The position numbers and the translations under genes are program-made. This document shows positions 11,374 to 18,191 of a stretch of DNA of 64,000 nt, piece after piece. The stretch is from Balanoglossus misakiensis (Eukaryota; Animalia; Hemichordata): contig CM082588.2 in assembly GCA_040954595.2 (NCBI GenBank), forward strand, positions 8,478,844 to 8,542,843, given 5' to 3'. Numbering within the stretch: position 1 is the stretch's first letter; each line of letters opens with the position of its first letter. Under the pieces are notes generated by a model, which saw only the letters and a list, made by a program, of their open reading frames with translations, was not told where the DNA came from and made no database searches.

Positions 11374-12597
11374 TTATTGCTGATTGCAAAATTGGACCCG
11401 TTTCTTTTGTTGAGGGGGCTTTGTTTTCGCTTCCCGTGCCATTTTAGCGCAGGCATAATCCAGACCACACTCTTCTGCTTTGTTCATGTATTTCAGTGCA
11501 TTGGCAGAGTCGCCTTTTGCTTGGTAAACTTCGGCAAGACGATAACATGCCCATGATATGTAATATGGGTCACGGAGGGTGCTGATCAGATGGGTACATA
11601 TTTCACATGCATCACTGTACTGTTTCAAGTATGTGAGGGCAACGGCCTTCTGGAGAGAAGCAGCGGGATACAAACCACCTGCATATGCAACTGCTTTGTC
11701 GAGACACTCTATGGCTTTTAACAGGCACTGATGATTGCTTTCTATCGGATTGTGTCGGTATTTGGCCATGTATGTGACTCCTAGGTTCCACGCGAATAAT
11801 GGATTGTCTGGATCTTGTGCTGCAGCATTGTGAATAACTTGCAGTGCTTTTTCGAAGTCTGGAACATTGCTGTCGCAATAATAACGACGTGCATAAATCA
11901 CCTCGAAATTGGATAAAGGGGTTAATTCGAGTGCTTTCTGGGTGAGTTGACCTGCTTCTTCATAGCGACCTTCTTTGAGTGACAGGTCACTTAAAAGTGC
12001 CAAAGCATAGCTGTGATGGGCATTTTTCTTAAGAACTCTCTCAAGCAAATTTCTTTCTCGTGCCATTATTTCTAAGGCTTCCTTACATTTTGAGCTTCCA
12101 TAGACACGAGAAAGTTTGTGTGAAAGAATGAATGCTTGCCAAAGCAGCCAATCTGTTTGTTCTGGAAGTTCTACTAAAGCACGATCAAAGCTATCAACTC
12201 CCTCATCACACATTTTCTTGACAAAATAAGTTAGAGAGGTTCCCTTGTGAGCATATACATACGCTTTCTGTTTCCCTGACAATTTATCAAGTGACAAAGT
12301 TGCTATCAACTTAAGCGTTTCATCAACTCTCTCCATCTCACCCGACATGAAATGAACCCATGCTTTATCTGCAAGAAGAACCAACTTATCACCAAGTGGA
12401 CCATCGTCGTCACCATCACAGCTGTCAAGTTCTTTCTGGTTGTCGGTGAGGGCGTCATCAAACCACTTCAAAGCGGCGCTTGGATCTCTCTTGTCTTCTG
12501 ATCTCAGTTTGGACACGTACAGGTAACCTTTGATAGCTTTATGGGGAACTGGAGAGAACTCCTGGTTGTGATGTTTAAGGTTGCTGTCCAAATCACA
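11374..12597 (-). CDS. G2 terminal exon: IFIT-like tetratricopeptide repeats
   Basis: LADKAWVHFMSGE resembles IFIT WGNYAWVYYHMG; multiple TPR motifs such as EGRYEEAGQLTQKALELTP; the preceding exon 13214-13335 encodes the IFIT N-terminal signature LLQRFPCHFTWKL. Confidence 0.8.
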   Translation of the reverse strand, partial: CDLDSNLKHHNQEFSPVPHKAIKGYLYVSKLRSEDKRDPSAALKWFDDALTDNQKELDSCDGDDDGPLGDKLVLLADKAWVHFMSGEMERVDETLKLIATLSLDKLSGKQKAYVYAHKGTSLTYFVKKMCDEGVDSFDRALVELPEQTDWLLWQAFILSHKLSRVYGSSKCKEALEIMARERNLLERVLKKNAHHSYALALLSDLSLKEGRYEEAGQLTQKALELTPLSNFEVIYARRYYCDSNVPDFEKALQVIHNAAAQDPDNPLFAWNLGVTYMAKYRHNPIESNHQCLLKAIECLDKAVAYAGGLYPAASLQKAVALTYLKQYSDACEICTHLISTLRDPYYISWACYRLAEVYQAKGDSANALKYMNKAEECGLDYACAKMAREAKTKPPQQKKRVQFCNQQ

Positions 12598-15500: not shown

Positions 15501-18191
15501 AGTTGATATCTCCATGTCTCTATGGTTGTCTTCAGGTTAACGTCAGACACATTAAGTTTGTGGAGCAATTCGGGTGTGATCATGTCTGCCTTAAACAGAT
15601 CTCCCAGGATCCCTTGCCTGTAGTCACGCCATAGTCTCTCCACTGACTTTGATGTCTGGCATGCCAATACAACATTTACACTACCCCGCTTGATTTCTTC
15701 AATTTGTATGTTTCCAACACTGTTGAGATGCTCTTTGACTTTTGGTAGATCGTTTTCAGAGCTGCTGTTGTTGATTATCTCATTTTCGATTAGTTCAACT
15801 TGGTCTGGAGTCAAGGTTGGACCGGACACCTTAAGCTTGACTACGATTTCTCCTGAAATAACATACAATGAGTACATTGTATTAGAATTGACATGTGTTG
15901 TACAGGTTTCGAAGCAAGACTTATCACACAATTTCACTAGGCTAAATCCACATCCGCAATGGATGTTTTAATTGCCCAGATTATAATTAAGCGAGTCCCT
16001 ATTCACTTAATCTAAACACAACACACAGACACCAGACAGATAATACAAACAAAGAAACAAACAAACAAACAAACAAACAAATAAATAAATAAATAAATAC
16101 ATAAACACAAACAAACAAACAAACAAACAAACAAACAAGCAAACAAACAAACAAAAACACAAAACAAACGCATAAACGAACGTTTCCATTGCTCTACATG
16201 AGGAGAGACATCCTCAAGTACAAATATGTTCTTAATTCAAACCTCATTTTGTTTCATTACACAACTGTATTCTACATCATATATTGGCAAATGCATCATC
16301 CAATTACATGATGAACGATACAATTACTAGTATATAGGGACGAGTGAATGTGAGCAACTATAGTTCCGTGCGTTAGCTGCTGTGCTTGTGCCACGTGCAG
16401 GCCACGTGAACCATTTTATTTGGTTTTCAGTTTGAATATTGTATGAATATTGTTTTATAAGGACAGACAAGTAATTTTCACTAGGCGTAAAAATGTATCC
16501 AATCAGCACCCTTACCCAGATTCGAGTTGACAGTGTGTTGAACTTCATGCGTCTGTCCACTGTCAGGATTTTGCTGGCCACCTTCACCATTATTCAGATC
16601 ACCATTTTTGGACTCGTTGTTGCTAGGGACATCTTGAACCTGCTTTTCTGCTTGGCTGCCATCAGAATTCTTGGGTTGTTGGTCTTTAAGTGTTTCCTCC
16701 TTACCTAGTGCATAATAAAAATACTACAACTTACAAAATTTGATTTTAGCTGTAATTTAATTAATAAAACAGAATATCAATTCACTCAACAGCTGTTTTA
16801 ATTCTTAAGCTGACCATCATTTATTACACTGTTTTGATTTTCTTTAACGAAGACATTTTGCGTAGCCGTTAACTGGCAACACGTGATTCTGTTATCTGTT
16901 ACCCTTCTATCTATTTGCATTTACCTTTGGGGGGCTCTTCTACAGGGTCGTCACAATCTCCTGGACAAGCAACACAACCCATGAGTGTCGTTTGGTTGTC
17001 AGATATAACACCATTCTCTGCCGATTTATGGAGTGCAGACTGCAATTCCTGTGATGTTTTCTTGGCGCGACCATATTCACTCAGAATCTCCATGATAGCA
17101 CGTGCCCACTTTTCACTTCCGCTGTCAACATTTTCGTTTGGTCCCACGTCACAGTATGGTACACCGAGTAAGTGGAAGTGTTCTTTTGTGAAGTTTGCAA
17201 GACCTGATTGCTTTGGCTGTACAGTGGGCACCCCAGCAGCGCAGGATAGAAGACCAATCACACCAAATGGGTCGCCTTTAGTCGTGAAGTTTACCAGGAT
17301 GTCACACTGCCTCAAGTCTTTCTTTAACTGGTCTATCGATGTGTCGTTTGGATATAAATTGATCACTAACCAATCTGATTTCGCCATCGTCTCCAGCTGC
17401 TGCTGAATCTTCTTACATGATGTAGACACTAAAAGTCCTTTGAACTTCCACTTTATTTTTCTAGCCAAAAAGCTGTTAATGTAAGCAACCTTCTCCATGC
17501 CACGAGCTGCTGCTTCAAATTCCTCCAGATCTTGTAGGTTTGAAATCGTATGCACAGATAAGACTTCGATAGTCTTACTTAAGTCTCTTTTGTTGAGCGA
17601 AATCTTGCCGACATCTTTCTTCATCCAAGGGATGTACAGAACATTCTCCACTTGTGAGTCTAACAAACCTTGAATCTTCATCTTCAACTCCTCATGTACT
17701 GTTGGTCCAACAGATATAATGACAGAGGACGTCTCTGCATATTCCAGCATTTCATCATCTTTGGCAGCCAAGTCTGAAGGATTGAGGTTCATGTTTTCCG
17801 GTATGTCAGAATAAACAGGAACAAAACTCGCAGTTGGAAAAACCTCTGCTTGAATACTCTTTGCTGTACTGGCAGTTCCATCCTTACAAGCAGTACCGTA
17901 TATGGTCGTAATTGGGTGATATTTCTTTAACTGTTGAAAATAGTGTTCGTGTAAAATTAACCAATCACTTGTCGGCTTCCCCTCTTTGATTGGTAGTATC
18001 AGCTCCACTCCATGACGCCTTGCTTCTTCAACTTCTTTGTCAGAAGCCTGTAACGCCATGAAGTAAACCTGGTTGTTTCCATCACCAAGATCGATGGCCA
18101 ATTGTCTCTCAGTAAGACATGTTGCAATATTGCGACTTCTCGGCCACCACTCCTCTCCGACAACCAACACACGATTCTTCACCTTTGCCAT
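11374..18191 (-). CDS. G2: GT4-like / TRADD-N-like / CxxC / X / coiled coil / IFIT-like TPR protein (about 1334 aa)
   Basis: Exons 18191-16925, 16704-16516, 15852-15469 (GC donor), 15243-15157, 14937-14623, 14309-13893, 13335-13214, 12597-11374 (stop). The sum is 4005 nt and the frame is continuous. Confidence 0.85.
13893..14309 (-). CDS. G2 exon: coiled coil (139 codons)
   Basis: Paralog of 717-1175 with the same splice sites. Confidence 0.8.
14623..14937 (-). CDS. G2 exon: domain X
   Basis: 315-nt phase 1-1 paralogous exon. Confidence 0.8.
15469..15852 (-). CDS. G2 exon: TRADD-N-like domain
   Basis: Near-identical to 3499-3882. Confidence 0.65.
16045..16170. repeat. (AAAC)n/(AAAT)n microsatellite
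   Basis: Directly visible tetranucleotide runs. Confidence 0.9.
16925..18191 (-). CDS. G2 exon: GT4-like domain
   Basis: Acceptor ag|aa[21 protein letters not shown] motif; paralog of 4897-6163. Confidence 0.75.

Follow-up and report, generated by a model that had tools for sequence, protein, structure and literature searches.

A Predicted Tandem Gene Family of the Acorn Worm Balanoglossus misakiensis with an IFIT-Derived Tail behind a GT4- and TRADD-N-Like Front Half

Organization of the Locus

Five tandem gene copies (A-E) were observed in a window of 64,000 nucleotides (64 kb) of Balanoglossus misakiensis (assembly GCA_040954595.2, contig CM082588.2, positions 8,478,844 to 8,542,843), among which copy D is the subject of this analysis. 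When joined, its eight minus-strand exons (18191 to 11374) are predicted to encode 1337 amino acids (aa) in one open frame, in which a GT4-conflict domain, a TRADD-N-like domain, a domain X, and a coiled coil, hereafter the chassis, are followed by a tail of IFIT-like tetratricopeptide repeats (TPRs). All acceptors are AG and, except for one GC donor of exon 3, all donors are GT. Six phase-1 introns precede a final intron of phase 0. Copies D, C, and E all have the non-canonical GC as donor of their exon 3 (15469, 34637, and 3499, minus strand), whereas copy B has GT at this place and a GC donor after exon 4.

A first-pass annotation, made from the letters of this DNA, had named CHFTW, AWVHF, and the TPR run as IFIT signatures. 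The two motifs are residues 912-916 and 1009-1013 of copy D, respectively, several TPR families of Pfam exceed their own cut-offs, and IFIT descent is borne out by profiles, PDB matches, and a tree (see below). About 900 aa of GT, TRADD-N-like, X, and coiled-coil sequence had been expected ahead of the IFIT part, in good agreement with the 886 residues found upstream of the CHFTW exon. The phase-0 intron, which had been placed just after CHFTW, is indeed of phase 0, but it is situated 11 codons further on, after E927. At 10917-11165 (minus strand), the 3' end of exon 8 is partially duplicated; this duplicate has a tail like that of copies A and C, from which the final ~35 residues of copy D differ.

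Table 1. Exons of copy D and further gene copies in the window.
Feature	Position	Strand	Description
Exon 1	16925..18191	-	GT4-conflict domain, aa 1-422; Pfam PF20706, E 1.5e-30; EX7E reads D307-x7-L315
Exon 2	16516..16704	-	Linker of low complexity, aa 423-485
Exon 3	15469..15852	-	TRADD-N-like, aa 486-613; GC donor; PF20694, 18.7 bits (cut-off 23.7)
Exon 4	15157..15243	-	Short CxxC-bearing linker, aa 614-642
Exon 5	14623..14937	-	Domain X, aa 643-747; ferredoxin-like alpha/beta fold predicted from homolog model
Exon 6	13893..14309	-	Helical stretch and coiled coil, aa 748-886; weak coiled-coil Pfam matches, heptad pattern
Exon 7	13214..13335	-	First part of the IFIT-like domain, aa 887-927, including CHFTW; motif not preceded by an in-frame ATG
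Exon 8	11374..12606	-	IFIT-derived solenoid of TPRs, aa 928-1337; residues of the RNA site replaced and differing between copies
Copy C	26587..37216	-	Intact paralog, same eight exons, 1349 aa, IFIT tail
Copy B	45060..57408	-	Same front half, X-coiled coil twice, ZU5-ZU5-UPA-like region, DED
Copy A	61134..63952	-	Only the 3' part is present, from the coiled coil through the CHFTW exon to the TPR exon; frameshift in exon 8 near 61960
Copy E	1..6163	-	Same front half, X-coiled coil-X, open up to the window edge, with the tail lying beyond it

IFIT Ancestry of the Tail

According to profile, structure-library, and tree comparisons of the predicted protein, the TPR part is IFIT-derived by descent. 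A profile built from vertebrate IFITs only (13 rows, of which P0034 and P0116 were labelled from sequence alone) matches copy D over positions 8-361 of 471 with 89.6 bits. Generic TPR proteins match this profile from about position 140-200 onward only; one of them, P0023, reaches 89.1 bits, exclusively from position 201 onward. IFIT5 is the top natural PDB match of the Glandiceps homolog P0002 (E 4e-10, chain residues 7-365), of the homolog P0001, and of a profile from five rows of the fused clade (E 4e-18), i.e., the clade of IFIT parts joined to the chassis. In case of exon 8 alone, IFIT2 was found at E 0.001, ranking behind designed TPRs. Residues 1150-1613 of P0002 fall to IFIT clusters of the Atlas at 0.96-0.97, with 8 out of 10 named IFIT among the matches listed. 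The single-sequence fold model of exon 8 (predicted local distance difference test (pLDDT) 60.5) matches IFIT1 with Z 18.1 and a root-mean-square deviation (rmsd) of 7.2 over 321 aligned residues, tied with LGN, OGT, and BBS4.

In a 36-row tree, from which four short rows were excluded, the three window copies with an IFIT tail and four fused-clade homologs form one clade (100/100) on a long stem of 0.76 changes per column. This clade sits inside an acorn-worm group (98/96) together with eleven stand-alone IFIT-likes. Clustering with other TPR families, e.g., TTC22, had been named in the first-pass annotation as the outcome speaking against IFIT descent; the grouping with acorn-worm IFIT-likes holds, and as the tree contains neither TTC22 nor another outgroup, the exclusion of other TPR families is not covered by it. 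IFIT-like proteins were also noticed in crinoids and a sea cucumber (P0075, P0085, and P0126), two crinoid ones keeping 5 basic tunnel residues; thus IFIT-likes appear across ambulacrarians.

Evidence for the Fusion

At the level of gene models, the fusion is confirmed and common to two other acorn-worm genera. It is not a chance join of frames, since copy C has the same eight exons and phases with an open frame of 1349 aa. Searches with exon 8 led to gene models from Glandiceps talaboti and Ptychodera flava with 35-64% identity. Among the six fused-clade NCBI models, three (P0002 of Glandiceps, P0003 and P0004 of Ptychodera) have GT4, TRADD-N, X, and CHFTW in one chain; the others consist of one X with coiled coil and IFIT, of a model starting in the coiled coil, and of one with a short unrelated start. 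Except for one model, all six share an identical junction register ahead of CHFTW. Within the CHFTW exon, an in-frame ATG ahead of the motif is present in none of the three window copies, so a separate IFIT transcript, for which a promoter of its own had been considered, would require an extra upstream exon. No TATA- or ISRE-like match (ISRE, interferon-stimulated response element) was found in intron 6 of copy D, and no ISRE-like match within 1.3 kb upstream of its predicted ATG.

Three points weigh against the fusion. The splice joins are predicted from DNA and homologous gene models alone, P0001 and P0007 are devoid of the front half, and P0003 continues from a partial IFIT part into the GT4 region of the next gene, which indicates that such annotations can be chimeric. 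As to the phase-0 intron, two partial stand-alone models of Saccoglossus (P0154 and P0016) and an internal restart in P0161 begin at its column. Due to this match, the intron is probably older than the fusion and not special to it.

Replaced RNA-Tunnel Residues and Variation among Copies

Residues of IFIT5 were mapped onto the fused rows by profile alignment; the sites compared are those mutated in Table 5 of PMC9677429, 16 of which are covered by the aligned part. The RNA-site set includes K150, R186, Y250, R253, R260, H287, and Q288. Of the 16 sites, six fused rows share 0-1 with IFIT5, compared with 0-6 for ten stand-alone rows of acorn worms and 4-13 for twelve rows of vertebrates; the window copies D, C, and A keep 1/16, 1/16, and 0/15, respectively. 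Eight columns, K257, R261, and R294 among them, were taken as lining the tunnel. They hold 0-1 basic residues in the six fused rows, 3-5 in the ten stand-alone acorn-worm rows, and 4-7 in the twelve vertebrate rows. In copy D, K150 corresponds to Y, R186 to H, R253 to I, R260 to S, H287 to W, and Q288 to N. Since the tunnel residues appear replaced, IFIT-type RNA recognition is not supported. For the same reason, namely that a defining functional feature is not kept in the alignment, the tail is filed as IFIT-derived and not as a working IFIT.

This picture is weakened by 3 of the 10 stand-alone acorn-worm IFIT-likes, which likewise retain 0-1 of the 16 IFIT5 residues, so that IFIT5 identity alone does not separate the groups. 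Furthermore, an insertion of two residues at about aa 1171 makes the alignment register in its vicinity uncertain, and copy D has two arginines nearby. Net charge of the IFIT domain was rejected as a discriminator, vertebrate rows being likewise near neutral or negative.

A comparison of copies D, C, and A shows variation at 10 of 15 positions of the IFIT5 RNA site versus 79 of 405 other positions (p 1.4e-4), K150 being left out of the count as it falls at the break of copy A. For the intact pair D-C alone, 7 of 15 versus 56 of 405 positions differ (p 0.003), and within aa 1056-1300 alone the three copies vary at 7 of 12 versus 58 of 231 (p 0.018). When the RNA-site set was slid along the alignment, variation peaked at offsets 0, +3, +4, and -4, which corresponds to a helical periodicity. 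The ratio of nonsynonymous to synonymous differences per site (pN/pS) in aa 1056-1300 is 1.87 (p 0.043), 2.26 (p 0.011), and 2.88 (p 0.0015) for the three copy pairs versus 0.37-0.56 in aa 887-1055, and the corresponding ratio of substitution rates (dN/dS) of the chassis is 0.26-0.50 for D-C. On the other side, aa 1056-1300 was picked after viewing the alignment, the three pairs are non-independent and include the frameshifted copy A, and the pN/pS of D-C drops to 1.2 (p 0.27) when all of exon 8 is taken and to 1.03 for the entire IFIT part. A diversification of RNA-site positions among copies is thus suggested by these comparisons, which do not amount to proof. The frameshift of copy A lies in a run of A (61940-61990, minus strand), and this copy may be a pseudogene or carry an assembly error.

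The Chassis

The GT4-conflict match of copy D (106.9 bits versus a cut-off of 26) covers positions 1-374 of the 385 of the Pfam profile. Against the PDB, the sole GT match of the GT profile is weak (E 0.46). In GT4 enzymes, the EX7E motif binds the nucleotide sugar (PMC8760489). Aligned against the canonical motif of P0032, it reads D-x7-L/M in all six GT rows, with L or M in place of the second Glu (for copy D see Table 1), and due to this reading the GT4 domain is likely inactive or altered in function. An opposite indication is given by D307, which is invariant in the six rows, and by some GT4 enzymes that can dispense with one Glu of EX7E (PMC8760489). The domain is under purifying selection between the window copies (dN/dS 0.37).

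A model of the TRADD-N-X region of a Ptychodera homolog (pLDDT 74.8) shows two ferredoxin-like domains. The modelled TRADD-N domain finds 1f2h at rank 6 (Z 5.6, rmsd 4.7, 106 aligned), in a tie with other ferredoxin-like folds; together with a score of exon 3 below the Pfam cut-off (18.7 versus 23.7), this tie speaks against a firm TRADD-N assignment. The modelled domain X matches RRM/ACT-like chains with Z of at most 5.8. In Pfam, no match to domain X was obtained, the best Atlas hit (0.86) belongs to no family, and Foldseek searches of the PDB and of viral libraries returned no meaningful match. Its homolog search recovered just 2 Ptychodera proteins among 929 candidates, and hhalign assigns a probability of 0.2% to a relation with the exon 3 domain. 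Domain X may resemble NCOA6-type TRADD-N. The exon pair encoding X and the coiled coil is duplicated in copy B (50844-54160, minus strand) and in P0002 of Glandiceps, and in copy E (1-1796, minus strand) a second X begins at the window edge.

Exchange of Tails in the Tandem Array

The chassis of copy B comprises an open core of 1128 aa, and one splice chain extends it to 1724 open aa. This model is tentative, as the search of candidate splice sites in the tail gave no open chain and a hand-chosen acceptor at 47335 gave one. For the tail (45060-50444, minus strand), Pfam reports a DED (E 7.5e-11) and a ZU5 at E 0.15 only, and an HFS motif is present, which is an autocleavage motif. The UPA label is a putative one, assigned from position. 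The DED-bearing tail joins at the same phase-1 junction as the IFIT tail of copy D, and since the same chassis thus occurs with either, the tail appears to be exchangeable.

A 237-bp tandem repeat of 5.9 copies (30410-31806) lies within the last intron of copy C, which is enlarged, and recurs inverted at 2158-2641 within an intron of copy E. Broken frames at 19698-21078 and 42058-42711 (minus strand) resemble, by eye, endonuclease or reverse transcriptase fragments of long interspersed nuclear elements.

Proposed Function and Alternatives

Copy D is predicted to be a single intracellular immune receptor of 1337 aa, and all of the mechanism beyond gene anatomy is what we infer. The chassis would have acquired a stand-alone acorn-worm IFIT downstream of one of its phase-1 introns, after which the inner surface of the IFIT would have diversified between tandem copies. 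Upon ligand binding, the protein would cluster by means of its coiled coil, and the TRADD-N-like domains thereby brought together would recruit adaptors, possibly the ZU5-UPA-DED paralog, feeding into caspase or inflammatory signalling. With a confidence slightly better than even, we propose that the IFIT-derived solenoid serves as a variable sensor of a non-RNA or altered ligand, clusters via the coiled coil, and signals via its TRADD-N-like domains, possibly with the DED paralog. The first-pass annotation had supposed that RNA or ligand recognition is coupled in cis to an effector or signalling module. Ligand recognition and signalling fit the present data, but RNA recognition of the IFIT type is not supported with the tunnel replaced, and neither is an intact GT effector with EX7E altered. 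In an extended version, IFIT would have been made a diversifying module resembling leucine-rich repeats (LRRs), and IFIT-tailed sensors of different pathogen ligands would co-assemble via the coiled coil with ZU5-UPA-DED executors of death signalling. We consider this version unlikely; if true, the sensor/executor pair would represent an animal system without a nucleoside triphosphatase, derived from one exon-shuffled chassis.

Alternatively, the IFIT part might bind foreign RNA via a rebuilt surface and activate the GT4 domain in cis to glycosylate a pathogen or host target. The IFIT homology, colinear from the N-terminal motif onward, the purifying selection on the GT domain (dN/dS 0.37), and the invariant D307 are in agreement with such a function. 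An effector role of GT4 has been proposed by Kaur et al. 2021, whose TRADD-N fusions include RNA receptors (PMC8195603), and IFIT5 R186H, carrying the residue that copy D has at this position, still bound RNA with a 5'-triphosphate in one assay (PMC9677429). We nevertheless regard it as rather improbable: Y, I, S, and N stand in copy D for K150, R253, R260, and Q288, the loss of such residues strongly lowers IFIT5 binding (PMC9677429), L or M replaces the second Glu of EX7E in 6/6 rows, and a glycine pair near the start of the bacterial GT4-conflict rows is, by eye, absent in the window copies (PMC8195603, supplement 2). An integrated decoy, in which the IFIT part mimics stand-alone IFITs and traps viral IFIT antagonists while the chassis raises the alarm, is assigned a similarly low probability. 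It would parallel the integrated domains of plant nucleotide-binding leucine-rich repeat receptors. RNA binding is dispensable for a decoy, and the fused clade arises within acorn-worm IFIT-likes that persist as stand-alone proteins with a more basic tunnel; however, variation on inner helix faces at RNA sites suits a binding groove rather than mimicry of an outer surface, and close mimicry is unlikely given a clade stem as long as 0.76 changes per column.

A tail that decays under relaxed selection after the fusion, with no role in sensing, would explain the frameshift of copy A, the altered C-terminal tail of copy D with a partial exon 8 duplicate behind it, and the D-C pN/pS of 1.03 over the whole IFIT part. 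Against this very improbable course of events stand the conserved N-terminal IFIT part (pN/pS 0.37-0.56), the clustering of changes on one helix face, and the retention of the fusion in two other genera. About equally improbable are two transcripts, i.e., a GT4-TRADD-N-coiled-coil gene and an IFIT-like gene starting in intron 6, which would render the fusion a modelling artefact. Read-through of the exon 6 donor reaches a stop after 30 codons, an AATAAA is located at 13586 (a motif common in AT-rich DNA), and the models lacking the front half (P0001 and P0007) or chimeric (P0003) are compatible with two genes. Opposed to this are the matching phases, the junction register kept in 5/6 homolog models, the lack of an in-frame ATG before CHFTW in all three copies, and an intron 6 of copy D in which no TATA- or ISRE-like match was found.

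Liu et al. 2013 concluded from three BLAST candidates that the acorn worm is without IFIT counterparts (PMC3688568). Contrary to this published conclusion, the present comparisons place IFIT relatives outside jawed vertebrates, and one lineage of them would have been recruited into a GT4-TRADD-N immune family, with a rewritten and diversifying RNA tunnel. Should this be confirmed, the IFIT fold would constitute a reusable recognition scaffold, and near-identical copies differing mainly on inner helix faces would offer a direct approach to what is detected by these poorly explored immune proteins of marine invertebrates.

Comparison with Known Systems

GT4-TRADD-N proteins have been described in amphioxus, hemichordates, and cnidarians, as have UPA-ZU5 fusions (Kaur et al. 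2021, PMC8195603). At least eight Branchiostoma proteins are given there as GT4-GTase+TRADDN-DEDD2+TPRs among the matches listed. Copy D shares with this DEDD2/TRADD clade the GT4 domain, followed by TRADD-N and then by a variable C-terminal module. It differs in the intervening X-coiled-coil unit, in the altered EX7E, and in its IFIT-derived tail, whereas the TPRs of the clade are called TTC28-like (PMC8195603); the amphioxus TPRs were compared by label only. A search for the term IFIT in that work gave no occurrence in the main text and, among the supplements searched, only 2 chance strings in an alignment file. GT4+TRADD-N+TPR proteins are therefore already known from amphioxus (PMC8195603); the open-access literature searched yielded no description of an IFIT joined to GT4, to TRADD-N, or to this chassis.

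With vertebrate IFIT1/2/3/5, copy D has in common the N-terminal CHFTW, the AWVxx helix, and a colinear TPR homology over ~360 profile positions. Vertebrate IFITs are stand-alone proteins of ~470 aa with nearly all coding sequence in one exon, 46 out of 60 genes being two-exon (PMC3688568), whereas in copy D 886 aa precede the IFIT part, an intron splits it, its RNA-site residues are replaced, and the last TPR pair is missing. The nearest non-fused relatives are the stand-alone IFIT-likes of Saccoglossus, Ptychodera, and Glandiceps (automatic RefSeq names), with which the phase-0 intron is probably common. In these, 10-20 residues precede the CHFTW-like motif and 3-5 basic tunnel residues are retained; many carry a C-terminal extension of roughly 200 aa. 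In six stand-alones of ~790 aa (P0009, P0011, P0015, P0017, P0019, and P0155) the last ~200 aa are conserved, and the sea cucumber P0126 seems to have a part of this extension. For two proteins searched, the extension gave no Pfam match at E 10; an N-x-x-K-H-like motif in some extensions may be reminiscent of HEPN domains.

The tail of copy B resembles PIDD, an adaptor of ZU5-ZU5-UPA-death fold architecture, in its ZU5-like regions, the HFS motif, and a C-terminal death-fold domain. Unlike PIDD, copy B is predicted to carry a DED in place of the death domain and the GT4-TRADD-N chassis in place of the LRRs.

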